This document shows positions 1,814-63,466 of a stretch of DNA of 64,000 nucleotides, one piece after another. Under the pieces are notes generated by a model. That model did not search any database. It saw only the letters and a program-made list of their open reading frames with translations, and was not told where the DNA came from. The translations under genes and the position numbers were made by a program. Numbering within the stretch: position 1 is the stretch's first letter; every line of letters starts with the position of its first letter. Location of the stretch: contig MFBZ01000029.1 of the NCBI GenBank assembly GCA_001776545.1, forward strand, positions 11,988 through 75,987, given 5' to 3'. The stretch is from Candidatus Curtissbacteria bacterium RIFCSPLOWO2_12_FULL_41_16. GTDB lineage: Bacteria; Patescibacteriota; Microgenomatia; Curtissbacterales; GWA2-41-24.

Positions 1814-1866
1814 CCGCAGGTGTAAAGCTAATCCACCCTTGGGGTGAAATACGTTTACACCCGCGG
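1814..1866 (+). repeat. REP element copy 1 (RAYT-associated repetitive extragenic palindrome, forward orientation)
   Basis: ccgcaggtgtaaagctaatccacccttggggtgaaatacgtttacacccgcgg has arms ccgcaggtgtaaa/tttacacccgcgg and an inner palindrome cacccttggggtg. The same element recurs at 7711, 34631 and 35356. Confidence 0.65.
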
Positions 1867-5076: not shown

Positions 5077-7683
5077 CTAATCCTCCCACGGCTGGCCGAC
5101 AGAAACTGTAATTTCGGCAGTATTGTCTTTGCCTGCTTCATTTACGGCTTTCACTTTTATTTTGTGCTTCCCCTTGTTGGCCGAAGCAAAAGTGAAGTTA
5201 AATTTATATGGTCCGTCAACTTTTGTGTCTTTAATCACATCATCGATGTAAAACTCCACCTTGGTTGCCCTTCGCCCGGTTTCCACCTCCGCTTCGGTTT
5301 CGAAACTAAAATCAACCTGCTTGTGGTCTTCGGGACTTTTAATTTTTACTCGAATATCATCAGGGTTAGCCGCCGGTTTATTAACCAACTCTTTAGGCGC
5401 CTGATATTTTGAATCACCCTGGCCAGCTGCCCAAGCGTCAATTCCTTCTTGCCAGCGATTCTTGCCATCTGTTGAAACCGGGTCAAACTCCGCAAAAACA
5501 TAATATTCTTTTCCGTCCAAAATCTTCTCGGCCAGGCAATCTCGCGTCGGCTCAGTCCCTTTTATGAAATATTCACTTCTTTTTGGAAAATCCCGGCAGG
5601 GAAGACCTCCGCCAAACGCATCGACCTCCAGGGCTATCACGTTGTCCGGTTTAACAAAATCACCAGAGGACTTGCCCTCAAGAACCTTTGTCATAATCCT
5701 GTTCCAAATCGGTGTTGCTCCGGTAATGCCGGAAGCGATCTTAGGATCCATTGGCGAATTATCGTTATTACCAACCCAAACTCCAACCACATAAGAGGAA
5801 TTGTAACCAACAGCCCAGTTATCACGTTTGTCATCAGTCGTACCTGTTTTAACAGCTACTGTTTTGCCGGGAATAACCAAAAGAGAAGAAGGGCCAAAGA
5901 CGGCACTTCTGGCATTATTATCAGAAAGAATATGCGAAATTAGAAAAGTAATATCCTCGCCCAAAACCTTTTTCCCTTTTGTCTCTTTTGCCTCCTCCAA
6001 AACCTTACCATTTTTGTCCTCCACTTTAAGAACCGCTACTGGCTCATGATAAACCCCGGATGTTGCCAGTGTCCCATAGCTGCTTGCCAAATCAAGAAGT
6101 TTCACCTCGCCGCCACCTAAGGTAATTGACAATCCAAAACGTTTTAAGTTCTCATCAGTTGGTTCGAGTGATTTCACGCCGGCTTCATAAGCAGTCCTCA
6201 ATATATTTTTAATACCCACAAGGGCAGTCATTTTAACTGCAGGAATATTGACAGAGTTGCCAAGCACAAACCTAATCTGCATAGGGCCACGAAACTTTCC
6301 GTCGTAATTGACCGGCTTATAAACTGGTTGACCGCCTCCGATTGGAAATTCCGTTGCGGCATCGAAAATCACAGAAGCCGGCGTGTAACCTGCTTTAAAC
6401 GCCGTTGCGTAGGTAAATGGCTTAAGGGCTGACCCGGGCTGTCGAAGTGAAAGAGAGACATTAACTTGGCCATCATAATCCCTGGCGAAATAATCCTTTG
6501 AGCCGACCATCGCCAGAATTTGTCCGTTCTTAGCATCCGTCACCACAGCCGCTCCGTTTCCGACAGCAAAACTCGCAATTTTGCCTACTTCCTCCGTCAC
6601 AATCGCCTGCGCTTTATTTTGCAGCTCAAGATCCAAGGTCGTTGTCACTTTAAGCCCGCCTGTTTCCACCATTTTCTCTCCAAATCTCTCAACTAAAAGA
6701 TCACGAACATAAAAAACAAAATGCGGAGCGGCAATCCCTTTATCGTTTGATGAAAATTTAACGCCCTGGATTTCCTTCTTCAATTTTTCCTCCTGCTCGC
6801 CGGTAATGTATTTATCTTCACGCATACGTCTTGCCACATCCTCTGCTCTGGCAATATAAGCCTTTGGATTTGTCCCGTAAGGTGAATAAAAAGAGGGTCT
6901 CTGCGGTAAGCCCGTCAAAATGGCAGCTTCTGCCAAAGTTAAATCTTTTGCCTCCTTACTAAAATAGGCCTGCGCCGCCGCCTCAATTCCCCAGGCAGTA
7001 CCACCGTAAGGCACCTCATTTAAGTAAATCTGCAAAATCTCGTCTTTGGTGTATTTTCTCTCTACCTGAATTGACAGAAGAAATTCTTTTATTTTTCTGG
7101 TTAGTGTTCGCTCCGGGGTAAGTAAAGTATTTTTGACCACCTGCTGCGTAATCGTCGAACCCCCTTCCAGTTTTTGAAATACTACAATGTTCAAAAGAGA
7201 TCTGCCTATCCCTACAGCTGAAAATCCCTGATGTTTGTAAAAATTTTTGTCCTCAATGGCAATAGTCGCTTGTTTCACATAATCAGGCAGTTGACTCCAA
7301 TTAACCAAAGCCCTGTTTTTATCACCGTAAATATCATAGAGCAGCTTGCCGTTCCTGTCGTAAATTTTTGTCGAGAGTGAAGAGTCGCGAGCAGTTAGTT
7401 TATAAGGCGAAGGCAAGTCACGGGCAAACACCAAAAAAGAAAAAAGGGTAAAAAGTATCAGAAGAACCAAAGAAAAGAAAACAACAGTCGAAAAAAGACC
7501 AAAAAAGCGAATCCAAAAACGCCTCCTGTTAAAAGAAGACTTCGCCAAAAATGGGTGATTTATCTGCTGGCGAGCCGAAAGTCTTGTCAGGCGTGAAGTA
7601 AATCTTCTTGCTCCGAGCCGATTAACCGGAAACCTCATTGAAAACCTACCGCATATTATCTCAAACTGTTTTAACAATGACAA
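5077..7683 (-). CDS. Class A penicillin-binding protein (transglycosylase plus transpeptidase) with a C-terminal Ig-like domain
   Basis: The glycosyltransferase-51 region (TITQQVVKNTLL, RKIKEFLLSIQVERKYTKDEILQIYLNEVPYG) and transpeptidase motifs (SALKP SxxK, SVN, KTGTT) are present. The tail is beta-rich (KVEFYIDDV...KIKVKAVNEAG). Confidence 0.85.
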   Translation of the reverse strand: MSLLKQFEIICGRFSMRFPVNRLGARRFTSRLTRLSARQQINHPFLAKSSFNRRRFWIRFFGLFSTVVFFSLVLLILFTLFSFLVFARDLPSPYKLTARDSSLSTKIYDRNGKLLYDIYGDKNRALVNWSQLPDYVKQATIAIEDKNFYKHQGFSAVGIGRSLLNIVVFQKLEGGSTITQQVVKNTLLTPERTLTRKIKEFLLSIQVERKYTKDEILQIYLNEVPYGGTAWGIEAAAQAYFSKEAKDLTLAEAAILTGLPQRPSFYSPYGTNPKAYIARAEDVARRMREDKYITGEQEEKLKKEIQGVKFSSNDKGIAAPHFVFYVRDLLVERFGEKMVETGGLKVTTTLDLELQNKAQAIVTEEVGKIASFAVGNGAAVVTDAKNGQILAMVGSKDYFARDYDGQVNVSLSLRQPGSALKPFTYATAFKAGYTPASVIFDAATEFPIGGGQPVYKPVNYDGKFRGPMQIRFVLGNSVNIPAVKMTALVGIKNILRTAYEAGVKSLEPTDENLKRFGLSITLGGGEVKLLDLASSYGTLATSGVYHEPVAVLKVEDKNGKVLEEAKETKGKKVLGEDITFLISHILSDNNARSAVFGPSSLLVIPGKTVAVKTGTTDDKRDNWAVGYNSSYVVGVWVGNNDNSPMDPKIASGITGATPIWNRIMTKVLEGKSSGDFVKPDNVIALEVDAFGGGLPCRDFPKRSEYFIKGTEPTRDCLAEKILDGKEYYVFAEFDPVSTDGKNRWQEGIDAWAAGQGDSKYQAPKELVNKPAANPDDIRVKIKSPEDHKQVDFSFETEAEVETGRRATKVEFYIDDVIKDTKVDGPYKFNFTFASANKGKHKIKVKAVNEAGKDNTAEITVSVGQPWED

Positions 7684-7710
7684 ACCACCAAAACTTGATA
7701 GAAAATAACA

Positions 7711-7763
7711 CCGCGGGTGTCAACGTAATTCACCCCAAGGGTGGATTAGCTTTACACCTGCGG
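7711..7763 (-). repeat. REP element copy 2 (inverted relative to copy 1)
   Basis: ccgcgggtgtcaacgtaattcaccccaagggtggattagctttacacctgcgg is the near-exact reverse complement of the 1814-1866 element. Confidence 0.65.
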
Positions 7764-7803
7764 ATTTGTTGCTAGAAGACTTAAAAAGGGCTAAGATTCA
7801 AGT

Positions 7804-9314: not shown

Positions 9315-11375
9315 ATGGACGCAGATACGCCGATTTCCCAACTTCCCGGCATTGGCAAATATTATTTTTACAAACTCAAAGGACTGGAAATAAAAACCGT
9401 TGAGGATCTTATCTACCACCTCCCGTTCCGCTACGACGACTTCGCAAAAATCGAAAAGATCCAGAGTGTCACTCCCGGCCAGAAACTTTCTATCGTGGGC
9501 ATCGTCTGGCAAATCACAAATATCAGAGCAAGATCCGGAAAATTTATCACCCGTGCAACGGTAGCAGATGAGTCTGGCACAATCGAAGTTATCTGGTTTA
9601 ACCAGCCATTTTTAACCAAAAATATCAAAGCCGGTATGCAAATTTCCTTGGCGGGCAAGGCTGACTTACAAGGATCACGAGTTATTCTTGTTTCTCCAAC
9701 ATACGAAATATTAAGACGACGGCTTGGCACCCCCGGGGGGGAAAGCAATATACACCCCGGGGGGGCCTTAGTCCATACAGCCCGTCTAGTCCCTGTTTAT
9801 CCGGAAACCGAAGGCATTACTTCCAGATGGTTAAGAGCCAAAATCGCTTCAGTCTTGCCGGAATATCTCCGGTCCCAAAAGGATTTTATCCCATATGAAA
9901 TTCTCGAAAAACAAAAATTTATCAAACTTGATAAAGCTCTCCATGACATTCATTTTCCTAATAATTTTGACGAGGTGGAGAAAGCTACCAAAAGGCTTTC
10001 ATTCGATGAGCTTTTTTTAATCCAATTAACTACCATCTTAAGAAAACAAGACTGGCAAAAGAAAAGAAAGGCACCGGCAATGAAACTCGATAAAGAAAAA
10101 ATCTCGCAGTTTGTTGAAAGTCTACCCTTCAAGCTAACGGCTGCCCAAAAAAAGGCAGCTCGCCAGATTCTTTTTGATCTAAAAAAAACAACTCCCCAAA
10201 ACCGTCTCCTGGAAGGAGATGTCGGTTCAGGCAAAACCGTAGTTGCGGCAATCGCCGCCTATGTTGCTTATTTAAATGGCTTTGACACTCTACTTGCTGC
10301 TCCCACCGAAATTCTTGCCTTTCAGCACCACCAGACACTTACAGAGATTTTATCATCCTGGGCTGTTAAAATTGGAATTTGGACCGGCAGTAAAAAAAGC
10401 GCAGGCAATATCACTTGCGGTACTCATGCCCTTCTTTCAACTTTTAAGCAACAAAGACCGATCGGCTTGGTTATTGTTGACGAACAGCACCGCTTCGGAG
10501 TAGCACAACGGGCCAAACTCTTTTTAAGACACAACTTGAGGCTCACTCCGCATTTACTAACAATGACCGCGACCCCCATACCCAGAACTCTAGCTTTAAC
10601 CTTGTATGGAGATCTCGATCTTTCGATTCTTGACGAAATGCCTCAAGGTCGCCAAAAAATTGCCACTTTTGTAGTTCCTAATCTCAAAAGGAACAACGCT
10701 TATAAATTCATCGAAAAGCAAGTTTTTGAAGGCCGCCAAGCATTTATCATTACTCCATTTATCGAACCCTCAGAAACTATGATTACAGTTAAAGCGGCAA
10801 AAGTTGAATTCGGCAAACTTAAAGACAAATTTTCTAAAAATATCAGCCTCGGCCTTCTTCACGGCAGGCTCAAGTCAAAAGAAAAAGAGGAGATAATCAG
10901 TAAGTTTAGAAAAAACAAGATCCACATATTGGTAACAACTCCGGTTGTCGAAGTTGGCATCGACATTCCGAATGCTACGGTGATGATGATCGAATCAGCA
11001 GAACGCTTCGGGCTTGCCCAACTCCACCAACTTCGCGGTAGAGTTGGCAGAGGAAAACACAAGTCATACTGCCTTCTTTTCACCGATTCAAGGTCTCCTG
11101 GCTCATATAAGCGCCTCAAAAGTATGGAAAAAATTTACGTTGGCGCGGAACTAGCCGAAATAGATCTAAAGATGCGCGGCCCAGGCGAAATCTTTGGCCT
11201 CAAACAATCGGGTTTTATCAACCTTAAGATAGCCAATCTTTCGGATCATCAAATGATAGCCAGGGCTCAAGAAGAAGCCAAAAGAATCATCGAAATCGAC
11301 CCAATTCTTAAATCATTCCCGATATTAAAACAAAAAATCTCCAAACTTTCCTCCGCCTTCGCCCAACCGAATTAG
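9315..11375 (+). CDS. recG: ATP-dependent DNA helicase RecG
   Basis: The wedge region, helicase motifs (GDVGSGKT, DEQHRFG, TATPIPRTL) and a C-terminal domain are present. It carries an in-frame palindromic insert at 9728-9767. Confidence 0.9.
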   Translation: MDADTPISQLPGIGKYYFYKLKGLEIKTVEDLIYHLPFRYDDFAKIEKIQSVTPGQKLSIVGIVWQITNIRARSGKFITRATVADESGTIEVIWFNQPFLTKNIKAGMQISLAGKADLQGSRVILVSPTYEILRRRLGTPGGESNIHPGGALVHTARLVPVYPETEGITSRWLRAKIASVLPEYLRSQKDFIPYEILEKQKFIKLDKALHDIHFPNNFDEVEKATKRLSFDELFLIQLTTILRKQDWQKKRKAPAMKLDKEKISQFVESLPFKLTAAQKKAARQILFDLKKTTPQNRLLEGDVGSGKTVVAAIAAYVAYLNGFDTLLAAPTEILAFQHHQTLTEILSSWAVKIGIWTGSKKSAGNITCGTHALLSTFKQQRPIGLVIVDEQHRFGVAQRAKLFLRHNLRLTPHLLTMTATPIPRTLALTLYGDLDLSILDEMPQGRQKIATFVVPNLKRNNAYKFIEKQVFEGRQAFIITPFIEPSETMITVKAAKVEFGKLKDKFSKNISLGLLHGRLKSKEKEEIISKFRKNKIHILVTTPVVEVGIDIPNATVMMIESAERFGLAQLHQLRGRVGRGKHKSYCLLFTDSRSPGSYKRLKSMEKIYVGAELAEIDLKMRGPGEIFGLKQSGFINLKIANLSDHQMIARAQEEAKRIIEIDPILKSFPILKQKISKLSSAFAQPN
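9728..9767. repeat. GC-rich palindromic element inside the recG coding sequence (in-frame)
   Basis: cacccccgggggggaaagcaatatacaccccgggggggcc encodes GTPGGESNIHPGGA. It contains two CACCCC(C)GGGGGGG palindromes, in sharp GC contrast to the AT-rich context. Confidence 0.6.
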
Positions 11376-11758: not shown

Positions 11759-12166
11759 ATGAAAAAGAGAAGTGATCCAAGGCATAAGATGCGCATTCTT
11801 ACTTTCAAAACCCTATTTGAGCTGAATTTTAGACCAAACGCTAAGCTTCCCGAAAGTTCCATGTCTGCCCAGGTAATTTCCAAAAAAAAAGAAATTGACG
11901 GACTTATTATTAAAAACGCCAAGAGTTGGCCGATTGATCAAATCAATCCGGTTGACCTTAGCACTTTAAGGCTAGCTATCTGGGAACTTTTATTTAAAGA
12001 AAAAAAGGAACCATACAAAGTAATCATCGACGAAGCCGTCGAAATTGCCAAAGAATATGGTACAGAAACCTCAGGCAGCTTTGTCAATGGCGTTTTGGGA
12101 TCAATAATAAAGTCAAGAGTCAAAGCCAGGAGTCATAATTACCTGGCTTTACACTTTTCACTTTGA
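11759..12166 (+). CDS. nusB: Transcription antitermination factor NusB
   Basis: The protein is NusB-like (the ORF-track protein ends ...RSHNYLALHFSL, about 135 aa). Confidence 0.8.
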   Translation: MKKRSDPRHKMRILTFKTLFELNFRPNAKLPESSMSAQVISKKKEIDGLIIKNAKSWPIDQINPVDLSTLRLAIWELLFKEKKEPYKVIIDEAVEIAKEYGTETSGSFVNGVLGSIIKSRVKARSHNYLALHFSL

Positions 12167-12298
12167 CCCTTCGATTTACTCAGGGTCATCCCTTCGGGTC
12201 TGAGCTCCTCGAGTTACTCGAATCTGAGTGACGATCTCGGAATCGAAGATCTGAGCCTCGGAGTCGAAGACCTCAGGGTTGAAGACCTTGGCGAAGGA
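12160..12298. repeat. Repeat family 2, long copy (nusB-ACP spacer)
   Basis: ccttcgatttactcagggtcatcccttcgggtctgag...ggagtcgaagacctcagggttgaagacc; its reverse complement matches 18228-18320. Confidence 0.6.
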
Positions 12299-18191: not shown

Positions 18192-18227
18192 TCCTAACTC
18201 CAGTTTAGGTTTGTCAATTGTCAGATG

Positions 18228-18320
18228 TCAAATGTCATCCCTCGACTTCGCTCAGGTCTTCGACCCTGAGGCTCAGACCCGAAGGGATGACCCTGAGTTT
18301 ATCGAAGGGTCAATTGTCAA
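18228..18320. repeat. Repeat family 2, short copy (inverted relative to the 12160 copy)
   Basis: tcatccctcgacttcgctcaggtcttcgaccctgaggctcagacccgaagggatgaccctgagtttatcgaagggtcaattgtc. The 22-mer gacccgaagggatgaccctgag is the exact reverse complement of 12181-12202. Confidence 0.6.
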
Positions 18321-34623: not shown

Positions 34624-34630
34624 CCACAAA

Positions 34631-34684
34631 TCCGCACGTGTCAACATAACCCACCCCAAGGGTGGATTAGCTTTACACACGCGG
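34631..34684 (-). repeat. REP element copy 3 (inverted, immediately 5' of the RAYT gene)
   Basis: ccgcacgtgtcaacataacccaccccaagggtggattagctttacacacgcgg; its reverse complement matches copy 1 with a few substitutions. Confidence 0.65.
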
Positions 34685-34706
34685 GGTTACATGTTTTAAT
34701 AAATCT

Positions 34707-35354
34707 ATGCCTTCAAGAATTATCCCTTTTGTCAACAATCAGTTCTATCATGTTTTTAATAGAGGAGTAGCCCAAATGCCCACCTTTAATGATAGATGGG
34801 ATTACAAAAGATTCATCAAGACATTCATCTATTATCAGATTCAAGGACCAAAACCAAAATTTTCCATTTTTAGCCCTGAGAATCATAATTTGGATACCAC
34901 TAAAAGGATTATTGAAATCATTTGCTATTGCCTGATGCCTAACCACTTTCACTTCCTCCTGCAACAAAAAGTTGATGGTGGAATCACAGATTTTGTCAGC
35001 AAAATAAGCAACAGCTATACCAAATACTTTAATACGAAAAACCAGAGGATCGGACCATTATTACAAGGGGAGTTTAAATCGGTTTATATTGAAACTAACG
35101 AACAACTCATCCATGTATCAAGATATATTCATCTAAATCCGCTAGTCTCATTCCTGACAGATAATTTAGAAACTTATCAGTGGTCTTCTTATTTGGAATA
35201 CTTGAAAGAGGTTAAAAATAACACTTGTTCGAAAGGGATTATCCTTGACCAATTTAAATCTCCGCAAGATTACAAGCAATTCGTCCTAGACCAAGAAAAC
35301 TACGGAAAAAAACTAGAGATGATCAAACACCAGCTGCTTGATTTACCAGCCTGA
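34707..35354 (+). mobile_element. REP-associated tyrosine transposase (RAYT, IS200/Y1 HUH superfamily)
   Basis: Y1 transposase motifs are present: HxH (MPNHFHFLL), a catalytic Tyr region (SRYIHLNPL) and YQWSSY. The 215-aa length is RAYT-like, and the gene is flanked by inverted REPs. Confidence 0.75.
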
Positions 35355-35355
35355 T

Positions 35356-35388
35356 CCGCAGGTGTAAAGCTAATCCACCCTTGGGGTG
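35356..35388 (+). repeat. REP element copy 4 (forward, truncated, immediately 3' of RAYT)
   Basis: ccgcaggtgtaaagctaatccacccttggggtg is identical to the left arm and loop of copy 1. Confidence 0.65.
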
Positions 35389-35558
35389 TCTCCACTTTTA
35401 AACTCTTTTATAATCCACGCCTCTCTTAACCCCAAAATAAGAAGGCTTGTTTTATTCGCTTCGCTCTCAAAATAGCTTGCTTTTGAAGCTAAAAATCTGT
35501 TAAAATTGACAGAGTGATTGCTCTTCTGTAACACTGGATTCTAACCAAATTCCTATGA

Positions 35559-37532
<1,974 letters not shown>

Positions 37533-41098: not shown

Positions 41099-41188
41099 AA
41101 TCTAATGTGAACGACTAAATGAAATTTAAATTGAATTTAAAATATTTATACTGGAAGCCCGTCAAGGGCTTCTTTTTTAAAGTAGAAA

Positions 41189-42379
41189 TTGAAAATTATG
41201 ACAAATAACAAGGCAAGACTAATCCTTAAAGATGGCACAATATTTGCTGGGCTTGCTGCCGGCTCCCAAACTTCCGTCGCTGGTGAGGTCGTTTTCACAA
41301 CCGGCATGGTTGGCTATGACCAAAGCCTAACCGATCCGTCCTACTCCGGCCAAATCTTGGTTTTTACTTATCCATTAATCGGCAACTGGGGAGTACCACC
41401 TCAAGAATTTTGGGAATCGGAAAAAATCCATGTTTCAGGCGTTGTCATAAGCGACCTGACTACCAATCCTAGCCATTGGCAATCCCAAAAATCCCTCAAC
41501 CAGTGGTTGCAGGAAGAAAATATCCCGGCAATTGTCGGTATTGACACGAGAAAACTCACCCAGAAATTAAGGGAAAAAGGTGTCATGCTTGGCAAAATTG
41601 TGGTAGGGGATCAAGACGTCAAACTTTACGATCCTAATGCCGAAAATCTCGTCGAGCGGGTTTCTCCCAAGGAGGTAGTAATTCACAGACCGAAGTTGGA
41701 AGTGGGAAGTGAGAAAAATCTAACCTCTCACCTCAAAAATCCAGCTTCCCACCTCTCACATCGCACATCCCCAAAAGTTGGCCTTTTAAACTGTGGTGCC
41801 AAAAGAAATATTTTGAGAAATCTCCGCGCTCGCGGAGCAACGGTCTATGAACTTCCCTGGAATTTCGACCCATTCCCAGAGTCAAACACCCCCGGGGTGG
41901 GCTCTGACCCCCTGGGGGTGAGTCGAAAGATTAAAATTGATGGACTAATGATCTCAAACGGTCCAGGCGATCCAAAAATGGCCAAAGAATCTATCGCCAT
42001 CATCAAAAAAGCTCTCAAGGCGAAAATCCCCACTTTTGGCATTTGTCTTGGCAACCAGCTTCTGGCACTTGCAGCCGGCGGCGACACCTACAAACTTAAA
42101 TTTGGCCATCGGGCACAAAACCAACCGACAATAGAGGTGGGGAAGGAACGCTGCTACATTACCACCCAAAATCATGGCTTTGCGGTGGATGAGAAAAGAA
42201 TGCCAGACGGTTTTCGCCGCTGGTTCACAAACGCCAACGACAATACCAACGAAGGCATCATCCACCAAAAACTACCGTTCTTTTCAGTCCAATTCCATCC
42301 GGAAGCAAGCCCCGGCCCCACCGATACCGAATTCCTGTTTGATTATTTTTTGAACAAAGTGAAAAAAAGAGCTGCGTGA
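41189..42379 (+). CDS. carA: Carbamoyl-phosphate synthase small (glutaminase) subunit
   Basis: It has the CPSase small-chain N-domain and a class I GATase with catalytic Cys (FGICLGNQLL). It contains two GC/hairpin inserts at 41692-41770 and 41887-41922. Confidence 0.85.
   Translation: MKIMTNNKARLILKDGTIFAGLAAGSQTSVAGEVVFTTGMVGYDQSLTDPSYSGQILVFTYPLIGNWGVPPQEFWESEKIHVSGVVISDLTTNPSHWQSQKSLNQWLQEENIPAIVGIDTRKLTQKLREKGVMLGKIVVGDQDVKLYDPNAENLVERVSPKEVVIHRPKLEVGSEKNLTSHLKNPASHLSHRTSPKVGLLNCGAKRNILRNLRARGATVYELPWNFDPFPESNTPGVGSDPLGVSRKIKIDGLMISNGPGDPKMAKESIAIIKKALKAKIPTFGICLGNQLLALAAGGDTYKLKFGHRAQNQPTIEVGKERCYITTQNHGFAVDEKRMPDGFRRWFTNANDNTNEGIIHQKLPFFSVQFHPEASPGPTDTEFLFDYFLNKVKKRAA
41692..41770. 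repeat. Inverted/direct-repeat hairpin element inserted in-frame in carA
   Basis: gaagttggaagtgggaagtgagaaaaatctaacctctcacctcaaaaatccagcttcccacctctcacatc encodes LEVGSEKNLTSHLKNPASHLSH. Confidence 0.5.
41887..41922. repeat. GC-rich palindromic element in-frame in carA
   Basis: cacccccggggtgggctctgaccccctgggggtgag encodes TPGVGSDPLGVS. Confidence 0.55.
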
Positions 42380-54263: not shown

Positions 54264-55571
54264 TTATTTTTTTCCATTAACTTTAAACTTTGCACTTTGA
54301 ACCTTGAACTGATTAGATAGCTCAACCATCTTTTTGCATGCCACCGAAATTGGTGTTTCCGGCCCAAACAAATGGATATCATACTCTTCTTTTTTGGCAA
54401 CCCGCCTAAGCATCTCATACGCTTCTTTCTGTCTCGGTCCTCCCCGGCGAATCACAATTGGGTAATCCGGTTTTGGTTTTATTTGCCCAAGGCCTTGCAC
54501 AAAACCTGAAAGCGTTTCGTAAATATCAGTAAAGTTGGCGACCGCTCCCGCAACTAAACAACCTGACAAGCCTTTTCTTGAAAGTGTAACCTGCGTCAAT
54601 TTTTCGACTTTTTCCCTCGACGGGTTGCCGGAATATTCCGTGTAATTTGCCGGTCTGCCTCCAGAGGCTATCACCGCATCCATTACGAGAAGCGACGCCC
54701 CTCCGCCTGAAGCCAAAATGGCAATATCACCCGCTTCGCCACGAGGCGAGCCATCAAGTTCGATAAAAGTTGAACCCGCTGAGCCACGGTAATCTTCCTC
54801 GTCGATTTTTTTGGCCGCCAGTTCTCGCTGTGATGGAATCGCCGATATCGCTCCCTTTGACAAAACATCTAAATCTCGATGACGGGCCAGTCCAGCATCA
54901 TCAAGAATAATTTTGGCATCAACAGCTACGTAGTCAAACTCACCATTAACACTCCCACGTTTACTCTGAGCTCGTCGAAGGGCCAAAGGATTAACTTCTA
55001 TCAACCGGCAGTCATAACGCCAAAAAGCATCCCAAAGGCGCAAAATAAAATCGATAAGTCTATCTTCTTTAGGGGTCCGACCCCTATTAGGGGTTGAACC
55101 CCTAAATATCTTTTCCAAATCTTTTTTAATTGGCCCTGCCAAAGGGTCAAAATCAATTCTTATAATCGCCTCAGGATTAGCCTTTTTTACCTCCTCAATA
55201 TCAACTCCCCCTTTTTGAGAAAACAGCAAGAAGGGTATCTTCAGCGCAGTATCGTAAGTGATCGAAATATAATACTCGCTTTCGATATCAACCTTTTCGG
55301 CAAGTGCTATGAACCTTACCTGCTCTCCATTAAATTCTTTTCCTAAATGCTCTCTTGCAAAAGCAGTCAGCTGTTTTTCTGTCGTACAAACCTTTACTCC
55401 ACCACGTCTACCGCGATTTCCGGAAAGTACTTGGACTTTTGCAACGATTGGAAATTTAAGACGCTTGCGAGCCTGTTTCACCGCATCTAAATCCGAAGTC
55501 ATCACAAAAAAAGGGGTTTCTATCCCAACCTTTGAAAGAATCCGCAGACCTTCAAATTCGTATAGCTTCAT
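54264..55571 (-). CDS. Succinyl-CoA synthetase beta-like ATP-grasp subunit; candidate citryl-CoA synthetase large subunit
   Basis: It has an ATP-grasp N-domain (MKLYEFEGLRILSKVGI...VVKCQV-like VAKVQVLSGNRGRRGGVKV) and a ligase-CoA C-domain. It carries an in-frame palindromic insert at 55070-55107. Confidence 0.65.
   Translation of the reverse strand: MKLYEFEGLRILSKVGIETPFFVMTSDLDAVKQARKRLKFPIVAKVQVLSGNRGRRGGVKVCTTEKQLTAFAREHLGKEFNGEQVRFIALAEKVDIESEYYISITYDTALKIPFLLFSQKGGVDIEEVKKANPEAIIRIDFDPLAGPIKKDLEKIFRGSTPNRGRTPKEDRLIDFILRLWDAFWRYDCRLIEVNPLALRRAQSKRGSVNGEFDYVAVDAKIILDDAGLARHRDLDVLSKGAISAIPSQRELAAKKIDEEDYRGSAGSTFIELDGSPRGEAGDIAILASGGGASLLVMDAVIASGGRPANYTEYSGNPSREKVEKLTQVTLSRKGLSGCLVAGAVANFTDIYETLSGFVQGLGQIKPKPDYPIVIRRGGPRQKEAYEMLRRVAKKEEYDIHLFGPETPISVACKKMVELSNQFKVQSAKFKVNGKK
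55070..55107. repeat. GC-rich palindromic element pair (AGGGGTCCGACCCCT / AGGGGTTGAACCCCT) in-frame in the SucC-like gene
   Basis: On the minus strand it encodes RGSTPNRGRTPK. Confidence 0.6.
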
Positions 55572-57522: not shown

Positions 57523-57554
57523 CATTAGGGGTCATTAGGGGTCCGACCCCTAAA
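57523..57554. repeat. GC-rich palindromic element (ATTAGGGGTC-ATTAGGGGTCCGACCCCTAAAT) in the divergent promoter region
   Basis: It is the same TAGGGGTCCGACCCCTA core as the in-gene copies at 55070 and 62932, and this copy is intergenic. Confidence 0.6.
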
Positions 57555-62620: not shown

Positions 62621-63466
62621 CTAGTCGCTAGACGCTAGAAAAATCATTGCATTTTTAAGATCCTTTGGCAAGTCTAGGGTAAAAGCAATTTCTTTTTTTG
62701 TCTTAGGATGCCTGAAGGCTAAGAATGCCGCGTGCAAGAAAAGCCGCGGGCACCACAAAAGATCAAATTTAATAAGTTTTCTCGGACAGTAAATCAAATC
62801 AGAAACGATTGGATGGCCAATACTTTTTAAGTGAACACGAATTTGATGAGTCCGGCCGGTTTTGGGAAAAACTTTAAGCAGTGTATAGAAAGTAGCATGT
62901 TTTTCCAAATAATTAATTCGAGATTTAGTCATCCCCTCCAGGGGTCCGACCCCTTCAGGGGTCGGACCCCTAAAGAACTTGTGCTGAAAGTAACTAACCA
63001 TTCGATATTCCGTCCTTGCCTCTCTAGCCTTAGAACCAACACCATTCCAAACCCGGTTTGGAATTGAAGCTACAAACCGGGTTTGGGCAACCCCAAACTT
63101 GCCAAATTTGCCTATCCTGCCGATCTTAGATTCAATAACCCCCGACTCCTCCTTTATTAGTCCATGAACCAAAGCCATATATTCTTTCTCAACTCTCCTT
63201 TCTTTAAATTCCCCTTGCAAGAAATCAAAGGCCTCTTGGGTCTTTGCCACCAAAAGAAGTCCCGAAGTCTCCCGATCCAGTCGATGCACAATCCCCGCCC
63301 GATCTCCAATGCCTGAATCGCCAGGTTTGAGGTGAAAATATCCCGCCAGTTGATCTTGTAACGTCTCTTCACGAATCGTCTCGCTCCGATTCACCACCAG
63401 CCCAGCCAGCTTCTCAACCACTAAAATCTGTCCATCCTCAAAAACAATGCTTGCTCTCTTTAACAT
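62621..63466 (-). CDS. RluA-family pseudouridine synthase
   Basis: The catalytic HRLDRETSGLLLVAK is present. It carries an in-frame palindromic insert at 62932-62974. Confidence 0.8.
   Translation of the reverse strand: MLKRASIVFEDGQILVVEKLAGLVVNRSETIREETLQDQLAGYFHLKPGDSGIGDRAGIVHRLDRETSGLLLVAKTQEAFDFLQGEFKERRVEKEYMALVHGLIKEESGVIESKIGRIGKFGKFGVAQTRFVASIPNRVWNGVGSKAREARTEYRMVSYFQHKFFRGPTPEGVGPLEGMTKSRINYLEKHATFYTLLKVFPKTGRTHQIRVHLKSIGHPIVSDLIYCPRKLIKFDLLWCPRLFLHAAFLAFRHPKTKKEIAFTLDLPKDLKNAMIFLASSD
62932..62974. repeat. GC-rich palindromic element pair (GGGGTCCGACCCC / GGGGTCGGACCCC) in-frame in the RluA-family gene
   Basis: cccctccaggggtccgaccccttcaggggtcggacccctaaag encodes FFRGPTPEGVGPLEGM on the minus strand. 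Confidence 0.6.

Follow-up and report, generated by a model that had tools for sequence, protein, structure and literature searches.

A stretch of 64 kb of DNA (the window) from Candidatus Curtissbacteria, a small groundwater bacterium of the CPR (Microgenomates), carries a class-2 Y1/HUH gene placed between inverted 35-nt repeats; quite probably both form a unit of the REPtron/TIRtron type, with monomers and dimers of the repeat dispersed at low copy number and a mechanism that can be proposed by analogy. The REP/RAYT-type reading advanced in a preliminary description of this DNA holds with corrections: the kind of system is known from other bacteria, and here it is atypical, apparently low-copy and unusually conserved. 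The reduced genome supposed in that description agrees with the source, a CPR genome. Research on REP/RAYT systems has been confined almost entirely to Proteobacteria and a few other phyla, and CPR genomes, of about 1 Mb, have few mobile elements; in the literature searched, no description of a REP/RAYT system in CPR/Patescibacteria was found. The features of the window are the following:

34707-35354, plus strand: RAYT-like Y1/HUH nuclease/transposase gene (translated ORF, 215 aa)
34630-34689, unstranded: upstream flanking repeat, dimer, with a 53-nt core at 34632-34684 (33-mer scan; nhmmer matches + 34630-34666 and - 34678-34651)
35354-35390, plus strand: downstream flanking repeat, monomer, ATCCGCAGGTGTAAA-GCTAATC-CACCC-TTG-GGGTG (best nhmmer match, E 2.3e-12)
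1812-1868, unstranded: solo repeat, dimer, with a 53-nt palindrome at 1814-1866, in the rplT/pheS spacer, 3' of the terminator-like rplT hairpin
7709-7765, unstranded: solo repeat, dimer, with a 53-nt palindrome at 7711-7763, in the divergent PBP/tyrS spacer
34672-34700, plus strand: promoter-like arrangement, TTTACA at 34672-34677, a 17-nt spacer with TG at 34692-34693, and TTTAAT at 34695-34700

The 215-aa product is a RAYT-type enzyme of the Y1/HUH superfamily, as the preliminary description had claimed from its motifs. These motifs (CLMPNHFHFLL, SRYIHLNP and YQWSSY) are present in the translated ORF; the HUH motif corresponds to H80-F-H82, the catalytic tyrosine is Y140 within YIHLNP, and the three residues are invariant in 31 homologs. 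The WSS motif lies in the tail of the protein (residues 159-161). In a profile search, Pfam Y1_Tnp (PF01797) matched residues 68-142 with 30.6 bits (cut-off, 23 bits). For the RAYT profile, which together with Y1_Tnp had been proposed as a check, the outcome was different: the equivalog NCBIfam REP_Tyr_transpos (NF047646), the sole NCBIfam match, reached 47.9 bits and stayed below its cut-off of 80 bits. A PDB sequence search with the single protein found nothing, and the only match in a PDB profile search was a weak one to ISDra2 TnpA around the HUH motif (E 0.11), so a fold search was needed. The AF2 model has moderate confidence (pLDDT 78.6); it places Y140 in the helix 131-147 and shows the C-terminal ~60 residues as an extra helical region. 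The best Foldseek match of this model is 4er8_A, the REP-associated transposase of E. coli in complex with a REP hairpin (E 3.5e-5, probability 1.00, TM 0.63 on the target), followed by the ISDra2 and IS608 TnpA proteins (probability 0.99-1.00). The gene is flanked by holB and gyrB (identified with Pfam), has no tnpB partner alongside, and occurs once in the window and once in each of the relatives' contigs examined; in public annotation its product appears as 'hypothetical protein' or 'Transposase IS200-like domain-containing protein'.

The tyrosine motif of the protein is YxxxNP (class 2) and not the YxxxQ of IS200 (PMC6006769, Table 1). The TIRYT/TIRtron group (Di Nocera 2013, PMC3733652) is equivalent to TnpA-Y1 subclass 2.1 (Quentin 2018, PMC6006769) and to RAYT Group 1 (Bertels 2017, PMC5581495), and by its motifs the Curtissbacteria protein seems to fit best in this group, an assignment made from motifs compared by eye with Table 1 of PMC6006769 and not with the authors' HMMs. 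The complete set characteristic of subclass 2.1 is found (NHFH, LQ, YIHLNP and WSS, with FQ in place of LQ in several homologs), in agreement with the NH[YF]H, Y[IV]HLNP and SS tail of TIRYT proteins and with FQ or W[EQ] at their 'W' position. TIRYT genes too have long inverted repeats at their flanks, of which some are self-complementary and others form dimers, and the 3' half of the Curtissbacteria hairpin (GGGGTGA) resembles GGGGWSAS, a motif that many TIRs carry; in the window this half reads GGGGTGAA, GGGGTGTC or GGGGTGGG, a partial fit. The length of 215 aa is also in line with this group, whose median is 238 aa. TIRYT proteins have a C-terminal HTH-like domain, whereas a Pfam search for one (Bac_DnaA_C, HTH_23, HTH_28) gave no match in the Curtissbacteria protein at E values up to 0.1. 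In RAYT Group 1 the flanking 16-mers are moderately abundant, about 12 per replicon on average (PMC5581495). In the survey of Quentin et al., REP-like structures were not found for subclass 2.1 (PMC6006769); in contrast, the flanks described here carry a conserved, covarying and dispersed hairpin, so a family of hairpin repeats can go together with a protein that bears subclass 2.1/TIRYT motifs. CPR genomes are not mentioned in these three surveys (PMC3733652, PMC6006769, PMC5581495).

The repeats of the window were located with the 33-mer CCGCAGGTGTAAAGCTAATCCACCCTTGGGGTG, allowing up to three mismatches. Four sites were found, at 1814-1846 (+), 7731-7763 (-), 34652-34684 (-, two mismatches) and 35356-35388 (+), and none in 100 dinucleotide shuffles. 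The sites at both sides of the gene are on opposite strands, also by nhmmer, so that the inverted hairpin repeats around the gene, as well as the additional copies at 1814 and 7711 in the rplT/pheS and PBP/tyrS spacers, with neighbours identified by Pfam, were correctly described. A search with a 74-unit nhmmer profile detected no further convincing copies in the 64 kb or in 6 kb further upstream on the source contig; only two solo sites are thus present in the window. At 1814-1866, 7711-7763 and 34632-34684 the repeat forms a full 53-nt palindrome, and these three copies fold as single-stranded DNA with -13.5 to -15.0 kcal/mol and z from -3.3 to -4.2 (-13.5 and z -3.3 at 1814, -13.7 and z -3.3 at 7711, and -15.0 and z -4.2 upstream of the gene). 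The upstream repeat consists of two 35-nt units on opposite strands that overlap on a common hairpin, CACCC-CAA-GGGTG (34652-34664), and the arm of the minus-strand unit adjoins the RAYT-like gene. The downstream repeat begins within the TGA stop codon and is inverted with respect to the gene-proximal upstream unit; its 33-mer site (35356-35388) includes one arm and the inner hairpin only, and folds only this 5-bp hairpin, the whole fold being not significant. No known RNA family was found in the window with Rfam at gathering thresholds. A role of the repeats as terminators was discarded, given that no T-run follows the hairpins; a terminator scan made three 'terminator-like' calls, two of them at repeat hairpins, both followed by ATTAGCTTT, which is a T-rich tail only by the loose rule of the scanner.

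Comparison with relatives reveals that the basic unit has 35 nt, ATCCGCAGGTGT(A/C)AA followed by 7 nt and the hairpin CACCC-N3-GGGTG; that is, a conserved arm of 13-15 nt, (AT)CCGCAGGTGT(A/C)AA, 7 variable nt, and a hairpin of 5-6 bp. Monomers account for 83 of the 93 distinct copies in relatives and dimers for the other 10, and the 53-nt palindrome is a head-to-head dimer with one common hairpin, a derived form. The ~53-nt palindrome of the preliminary description is therefore real as a structure, with three full sites and significant folds, but it is not the basic unit, and the downstream copy, which had been taken as truncated, has the standard arm-plus-hairpin form. The sixth base pair of the hairpin covaries among 89 units (C-G 38, A-T 15, T-G 9, T-A 3), with 56 Watson-Crick pairs observed versus 39 expected from the composition of the columns, which we count as a sign of selection on the hairpin. 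In the consensus of the same 89 units, the 5' GT[AG]G (GTAG/GTGG) is absent from the inner and outer foot of the hairpin, which is preceded by the 7 variable nt and the arm CCGCAGGTGT(A/C)AA. Arm and stem are essentially unchanged across genomes in which the RAYT proteins are 58-80% identical and TyrS 43-51%, and, as judged from these sequences, the unit is conserved clade-wide and is not species-specific; one copy is present in a Paceibacterota MAG as well. A unit of 35 nt also provides a defined substrate for biochemistry.

These features separate the system from the one best studied, the REPtron of E. coli (TnpA-REP/YafM and REP/BIME; 4ER8; PMC3479197). Both have a Y1/HUH gene, apparently single-copy in Curtissbacteria too, inverted hairpin flanks and dispersed repeats; the proteins share YxxxNP and a serine motif that follows the catalytic helix, and neither is accompanied by tnpB, TnpA-REP being the best structural match. 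Nonetheless, the proteins are 13% identical, the Curtissbacteria one is 50 aa longer and misses the NCBIfam equivalog cut-off, and its unit has no GTAG foot, with a 13-15-nt arm, 7 variable nt and a short 5-6-bp hairpin instead; E. coli REPs are present in hundreds of species-specific copies, unlike the unit of Curtissbacteria, which is clade-conserved and seems low-copy. The term 'canonical' applied to this REP-RAYT system has to be withdrawn on account of the missing GT[AG]G foot, the low-looking copy number, the clade-wide unit, the NCBIfam score and the subclass 2.1/TIRYT motifs. The dimers recall REPIN doublets (Bertels & Rainey 2011, PMC3116915) and the 'double-foot' REPs of subclass 2.4, the latter a fusion of an inverted dimer (PMC6006769), in that two inverted units form one long hairpin; they differ in that the units overlap on one central hairpin without a spacer and are a minority in the clade.

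The same layout of inverted units around the RAYT-like gene was observed in the four independent genomes examined first (the window, L002, L005 and L007). At the homologous loci, 23-26 nt separate the end of the upstream unit from the start codon, and the downstream unit overlaps the stop codon or begins 2-26 nt after it. When metagenome contigs were scanned with the repeat pattern, 113 matches in 101 loci were obtained: 40 at 8-55 nt from a RAYT homolog (58-80% identical), one 1088 nt away from such a homolog, and 72 in loci without RAYT. After de-duplication, for which at least 400 nt of flank were required, 49 distinct solo sites remain in relatives, in intergenic spacers and also in-frame within housekeeping genes: 12 of the 49 are located in ORFs of 100 aa or more, and 8 of these 12 were checked as housekeeping genes. 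The repeat is hence dispersed beyond the gene in the window and, more convincingly, in relatives. Copies of the strict pattern are sparse, nine in a total of 1.15 Mb of contigs from relatives, each 100 kb or longer, a sample that is biased upward, and the copy number looks low. Canonical REPs, for comparison, number tens to hundreds per genome and lie mostly outside genes. This distribution also bears on the idea that the four copies of the window have nothing to do with the protein and arose by local duplication or as a chance palindrome. In its favour, the window shows no more than four sites, a 27-mer had no match in a metagenome DNA index (the near-identical contigs lie in a protein-indexed collection), and a 20-mer in a genome DNA index matched one unrelated Paceibacterota contig. 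However, no matches are expected by chance, and in dozens of independent contigs RAYT homologs are flanked by the unit, which in many other contigs occurs alone; this spread refutes the idea, to which we give practically no credit.

The link between enzyme and repeat is suggested by their co-occurrence and by the analogy to TnpA-REP of E. coli and to IS200/IS605 TnpA proteins. By this analogy, the protein would most likely bind the hairpin and its 5' arm in single-stranded DNA, for example in the lagging-strand template; it would cut through a 5'-phosphotyrosine intermediate at Y140, with the metal held by H80 and H82, and the strands would be rejoined. Cutting and rejoining might occasionally copy or move units and, rarely, the whole cassette of gene plus flanks. 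The gene-proximal arm would in addition supply the -35 hexamer of the promoter of the RAYT-like gene, in which case binding of the protein is expected to autoregulate its expression.

The promoter-like arrangement of the window overlaps the repeat arm and the sequence just after it, and its TTTAAT ends 6 nt before the ATG; the predicted promoter would yield a leaderless or near-leaderless mRNA. This -10 hexamer is weak, and a generic promoter scanner did not call the site of the window. Of 26 distinct upstream regions of homologs, all except L014 have TTGACA, or in a few cases TTTACA, within the reverse-complemented arm; 13 of the 26 have an exact 17-nt spacer and then a -10-like hexamer (TATGCT or TATATT in most cases) that in 12 of these 13 ends 7-9 nt before the ATG. 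Most of the remaining regions show, by eye, TGnTTTAxT or TGnTTAACT with the same spacing.

A second explanation starts from this architecture: the repeats may be host cis-elements under selection (promoter, protein-binding or structural), and the Y1 protein may have been exapted to a cellular role, as a site-specific nuclease or DNA-binding protein that no longer mobilises anything. It would account for a unit that is nearly frozen across genomes with TyrS only 43-51% identical, for the -35 that the arm carries at fixed spacing in the predicted promoter, and for the strong constraint on the protein. Between the window and L002, L005 and L007, the RAYT proteins are 79, 72 and 68% identical, compared with 74, 51 and 54% for PBP, 51, 45 and 43% for TyrS, 61, 39 and 36% for PheS and, in L002 and L007, 72 and 52% for RplT; RAYT is more conserved than TyrS, PheS and RplT in each genome pair, with a constant rank order, and gene and repeat are conserved across Microgenomates. 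Given a nuclease gene above tyrS, pheS and rplT in conservation and a constant repeat, this system offers a clean case in which to study the role of domesticated Y1 nucleases in the host. However, the solo units have no consistent orientation toward neighbouring genes, for which reason their use as outward promoters was discarded; the 12 sites inside ORFs, 8 of them in checked housekeeping genes, indicate insertion and not regulatory design; and presence or absence at orthologous spacers varies between relatives. For these reasons, repeats that are host elements alone seem to us unlikely. The intragenic copies provide a checkable route to insertions in proteins, and a broader proposal, somewhat less unlikely though still doubtful, is built on them: an ancient, vertically inherited Y1/HUH-plus-repeat system of the Microgenomates, whose repeat, frozen over phylum-scale divergence, would be the promoter/operator of its own nuclease gene and would have been inserted repeatedly in-frame into essential genes (LepA, PGK, ArgRS, CarA, Fmt, IscU, HolB). 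If true, the peptide insertions that characterise CPR proteins would partly originate from such copies, and a host-level function would be implied for subclass 2.1/TIRYT, thought to be without REPs.

Returning to the REPtron/TIRtron-type unit, its location differs between lineages, a sign of mobility over evolutionary time. The RAYT-like gene occupies at least four slots and is inverted in L015, and inside subclades its synteny is steady (cobO/RAYT in 8 loci, pheT/RAYT/PBP, PBP/RAYT/tyrS and holB/RAYT/gyrB). The order PBP-[repeat-RAYT-repeat] is found in L002, L067, L084, L022/L035 and L052, with tyrS next where the flank reaches. In the Curtissbacteria relative L118 the holB/gyrB site is empty, and in L002, also a Curtissbacteria relative, the rplT/pheS spacer has no repeat, unlike that of the window. 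The PBP/tyrS slot, with a solo repeat in the window, holds a RAYT homolog in the closest named relative. Because this slot coincides with the position of RAYT in relatives, the repeat at 7711 could have been left behind as a footprint instead of being inserted anew. A relic of the RAYT 3' end in this spacer was considered on the basis of a suggestive global alignment and rejected, since its local score was reached by 179-201 of 1000 shuffles. The spacers of relatives are too diverged to delimit the cassette at holB/gyrB or the repeat at rplT/pheS.

An autonomous insertion sequence of the IS200/IS605 type, with gene and ends selfish and solo repeats as scars or miniature derivatives, would explain a cassette in at least four slots and both orientations among related genomes, the empty holB/gyrB site of L118, and a solo repeat in the slot that holds the cassette in L002. 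The TnpA proteins of this family (IS608 and ISDra2; 2VJV, 2XM3) share the HUH/Tyr fold and a weak profile similarity around HUH, and in the model systems hairpin ends are recognised as single-stranded DNA, the Curtissbacteria flanks being likewise hairpin-bearing. These elements have a Y-x3-Q motif and a protein of ~150 aa (PMC6006769, Table 1), subterminal hairpins in direct orientation, multiple copies that are nearly identical and, often, tnpB. In contrast, the Curtissbacteria gene encodes a YxxxNP protein of 215 aa with an extra C-terminal region, is found once in 64 kb and once per examined contig, lacks tnpB, and lies between hairpins that are inverted and not direct on one strand; its conservation and synteny, with a position that is stable inside subclades, resemble those of a housekeeping gene. 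An insertion sequence is accordingly very unlikely, and the best explanation of the sequence comparisons is a RAYT-like gene that is domesticated, single-copy and vertically inherited. Among 11 near-identical contigs (L110-L117 and L120-L122; 98.96-99.99% identical to the window) no presence/absence polymorphism was found, so there is no sign of recent activity, a result that argues against the insertion sequence and would also agree with repeats that are host cis-elements. In one of these contigs, L115, the RAYT-like gene is split into two ORFs and gyrB is split too, probably by an assembly error.

The locus belongs to the already described RAYT/TIRYT systems; what is new is that this system comes from a phylum outside the surveys consulted (PMC6006769, PMC3733652, PMC5581495). 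The window, which has a GC content of 41.8%, the standard genetic code and about 90% coding sequence, contains the following elements:

34707-35354, +: RAYT-type ORF of 215 aa, containing MPNHFHFLL, SRYIHLNP and YQWSSY
1814, +: copy of the 33-mer CCGCAGGTGTAAAGCTAATCCACCCTTGGGGTG in the rplT-pheS spacer, within a 53-nt palindrome
7731, -: copy in the PBP-tyrS spacer, within a 53-nt palindrome
34652, -: copy with two mismatches upstream of RAYT, within a 53-nt palindrome
35356, +: copy after RAYT, one arm plus the inner hairpin

The four repeat copies reported in the preliminary description are real; shuffles predict zero matches to CCGCAGGTGTAAAGCTAATCCACCCTTGGGGTG. The neighbors were confirmed: holB (Pfam DNA_pol3_delta2) and gyrB on either side of the RAYT gene and, as named there, rplT-pheS and PBP-tyrS around the solo copies. 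Folded as single-stranded DNA, the three palindromes give energies of -13.5 to -15.0 kcal/mol (z -3.3 to -4.2). Neither the 64-kb window nor 6 kb of the source contig upstream of it gave another convincing copy when searched with an nhmmer profile of the repeat, and no Rfam family matched the unit in a search of the window. A second Candidatus Curtissbacteria MAG (GCA_001775075.1, contig MFBX01000034.1) is 99.97% identical to the window; there the RAYT protein is deposited as 'hypothetical protein' or 'Transposase IS200-like domain-containing protein'.

Against Pfam Y1_Tnp the RAYT protein reaches 30.6 bits, over the cut-off of 23. REP_Tyr_transpos, the sole NCBIfam match, is at 47.9 bits, under its cut-off of 80. 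Sequence searches of the PDB were nearly blind; the single protein as query gave no match, and a profile search gave ISDra2 TnpA with an E of 0.11. An AlphaFold model made from 31 homologs (pLDDT 78.6, pTM 0.79) has as its closest PDB structure 4ER8, E. coli TnpA-REP with a REP hairpin (E 3.5e-5, TM 0.63 (target)), followed by the ISDra2, IS608 and IS200 TnpAs. H80, H82 and Y140 are invariant among the homologs. The motif set (NHFH, LQ/FQ, YIHLNP, WSS) and the length of about 215 aa, compared by eye with Table 1 of PMC6006769 (Quentin et al., 2018), fit class 2 (RAYT-like) and, more narrowly, its subclass 2.1, which is Group 1 of Bertels et al. (PMC5581495) and largely the TIRYT of Di Nocera (PMC3733652). 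Pfam did not detect in this protein the HTH-like C-terminal domain described for subclass 2.1.

Comparison of the repeat unit began with four independent genomes: the window, Curtissbacteria L002, groundwater L005 and Levybacteria L007. In each of them the upstream flank carries (AT)CCGCAGGTGT(A/C)AA-N7-CACCC-N3-GGGTG on the strand opposite to the RAYT gene, its arm ending 23-26 nt 5' of the start codon, and the downstream flank carries a matching unit on the strand of the gene, beginning at the stop codon or 2-26 nt past it. Scanning metagenome contigs for the pattern CCGCNGGTGTMA-N8-CACCC-N3-GGGTG yielded 113 matches in 101 loci. Since 83 of the 93 distinct copies are monomers and only 10 have a complementary second arm, the single-arm copy after RAYT is the standard unit, and not a truncated form marking a processing side as had been suggested; the 53-nt palindromes of the window resemble a REPIN or a 'double-foot' form, being two inverted units with one common hairpin. 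Covariation is seen at the base pair immediately outside the fixed 5-bp stem (C-G 38, A-T 15, T-G 9 and T-A 3 of 89), with 56 Watson-Crick pairs observed against 39 expected, a figure inflated by related sequences.

A RAYT homolog (58-80% identical) is located 8-55 nt from 40 of the 113 matches and 1088 nt from one more; the other 72 are in loci with no RAYT. With duplicates removed and a minimum flank of 400 nt on both sides, there are 49 distinct solo sites, 37 intergenic and 12 within ORFs that are 100 aa or longer; the 37 intergenic sites show no orientation bias toward neighboring genes. Strict matches number nine in 1.15 Mb of contigs that are 100 kb or longer, where the sampling bias is upward, and the window has four sites in its 64 kb. 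Copy number looks low, within the range of Group 1, whose flanking 16-mers number about 12 per replicon, and far below Groups 2 and 3 (PMC5581495). A near-identical monomer, CTCCGCAGGTGCAAAGCTAATCCACCCTTGGGGTGG, was also seen in a Paceibacterota MAG of a different CPR superphylum (JANWIQ010000059.1, L001 528-560), where it overlaps the final codons (..TPQVQS*) of a 177-aa ORF; the first 2.5 kb of that locus show no RAYT ORF.

IS608 and ISDra2 TnpA act similarly to E. coli TnpA-REP, on subterminal hairpins. TnpA-REP binds the single-stranded REP hairpin with its 5' GTAG, and cuts at CT via a 5'-phosphotyrosine, strand transfer being possible (PMC3479197). The RAYT locus has in common with these systems its fold and catalytic residues, a hairpin with a 5' arm, and a tight association of gene and repeat, so the same cleavage and joining chemistry on the 35-nt unit is its most likely working; the predicted outcome would be that units, and the cassette, are copied or moved on rare occasions. 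It differs in that a long conserved arm takes the place of the 4-nt guide, the linker is 7 nt and variable, the hairpin is short, copy number looks low, and conservation is clade-wide. The REP/RAYT reading was right in kind but wrong in calling the system 'canonical'. The system stands out from routine cases by its frozen repeat sequence, by conservation at housekeeping level within a reduced genome, and by copies that lie in frame inside essential genes.

The RAYT protein of the window is 79%, 72% and 68% identical to those of L002, L005 and L007, respectively; the corresponding values are 74%, 51% and 54% for PBP, 51%, 45% and 43% for TyrS, 61%, 39% and 36% for PheS, and 72% (L002) and 52% (L007) for RplT, with no value for L005. 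Conservation of RAYT thus equals or exceeds that of the housekeeping proteins, in the same rank order, which fits vertical inheritance under strong constraint. The slot of the gene is constant within subclades and different between them: beside a cobO-like gene in eight loci (proteins about 60% identical); between pheT and PBP in L005, L007 and L068, inverted in L015; between PBP and tyrS in L002, L067 and L084, and next to PBP where the locus is shorter (L022/L035, L052); adjoining nusB in L042; and between holB and gyrB in the window and L119. The Curtissbacteria relative L118 has holB-gyrB with neither gene nor unit. In the PBP-tyrS spacer the window has a solo dimer exactly at the position of the L002 cassette; this 7711 copy could be a footprint or an independent insertion. 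The rplT-pheS spacer of the window also contains a dimer, which L002 lacks there. An apparent alignment of the RAYT 3' end to the PBP-tyrS spacer of the window (7711 copy) was not significant and was rejected as a relic. No presence/absence polymorphism was found among near-identical population contigs. In one of them (L115 2432-3063, 98.96% identical to the window) RAYT is called as two ORFs of 70 and 139 aa, more likely an assembly error than a pseudogene because gyrB there is also split. Just upstream of the dimer at 1812, gAATCCGAATTGATCCGAATC (1784-1805) repeats ATCCG, the start of the unit arm, and a similar GCGGATTCGGAT lies past the downstream unit of L002; past cleavage and joining events may have left both behind, or they arose by chance.

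Eight of the 12 unit-bearing ORFs match housekeeping-type Pfam families (ArgRS, IscU/NifU, CarA, PGK, Fmt, LepA in two scanned ORFs, and YfhO); two further ORFs had no Pfam match, that of L051 is HolB by similarity to HolB of the window, and the insert context of L077 is the same as that of LepA in L074. In 11 of these ORFs the coding strand carries the unit, which encodes SAGV..HP.G(V/G) or PQVS.Q.TPGV. In-frame units of 33-36 nt occur in the ArgRS, IscU, CarA, PGK, Fmt, HolB and LepA genes of the relatives L011, L012, L016, L028, L041, L051, L074, L077 and L091. In carA of the window (41186-42376), a hairpin-bearing stretch at 41877-41903, CACCCCCGGGGTG...CCCCCTGGGGGTG, falls in the same protein loop as the L016 insert; its similarity to the unit is weak (nhmmer E 0.09), and it is perhaps a degenerate relic.

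The reverse complement of the arm is TTGACACCTGCGGAT, and in all but one of 26 distinct homolog upstream regions the arm supplies TTGACA (in a few, TTTACA). In 13 of the 26 a -10-like hexamer, mostly TATGCT or TATATT, follows after 17 nt, and in all but one of these 13 its end lies 7-9 nt upstream of the ATG; most of the remaining regions have, by eye, TGnTTTAxT or TGnTTAACT at equal spacing. The elements in the window are:

34672-34677: -35-like TTTACA
34692-34700: TG-T-TTTAAT, ending 6 nt before the ATG

A generic promoter scanner made no call at this site in the window. From these motifs we infer that the gene-proximal unit doubles as a putative RAYT promoter, and as such it would likely be an autoregulatory site.

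Other repeats were also observed. A second repeat family, a 43-nt inverted pair, TTGACCCTTCGATTTACTCAGGGTCATCCCTTCGGGTCTGAGC, at 12163-12205 and 18271-18313 (95% complementary), has a hairpin of its own, GACCC-GAAG-GGATGACCC; in L002 the related sequence CCTGAGTTTATCGAAGGG (about 9828-9845) is found just upstream of the RAYT-flanking repeat. Four copies of the perfect palindrome AGGGGTC(C/G)GACCCCT, alike in their flanks, are present at 55066-55086, 57532-57552, 62935-62955 and 62952-62972; this short sequence may be terminator-like or another small repeat family. Runs of 4-6 TGT(C/T)Ann heptamers, possibly a regulator-binding array, occur at 35570-35611, directly upstream of and across the gyrB start (35604), at 18212-18239, and in the holB-gyrB spacer of the RAYT-less L118 (6725-6750 and 7010-7050). 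That 'empty' spacer (GCA_016183325.1) also holds, at 6740-6920, an unrelated element of about 170 nt delimited by a 14-nt inverted repeat, CACGAGTTTCGCAC ... GTGCGAAACTCGTG, which looks MITE-like.
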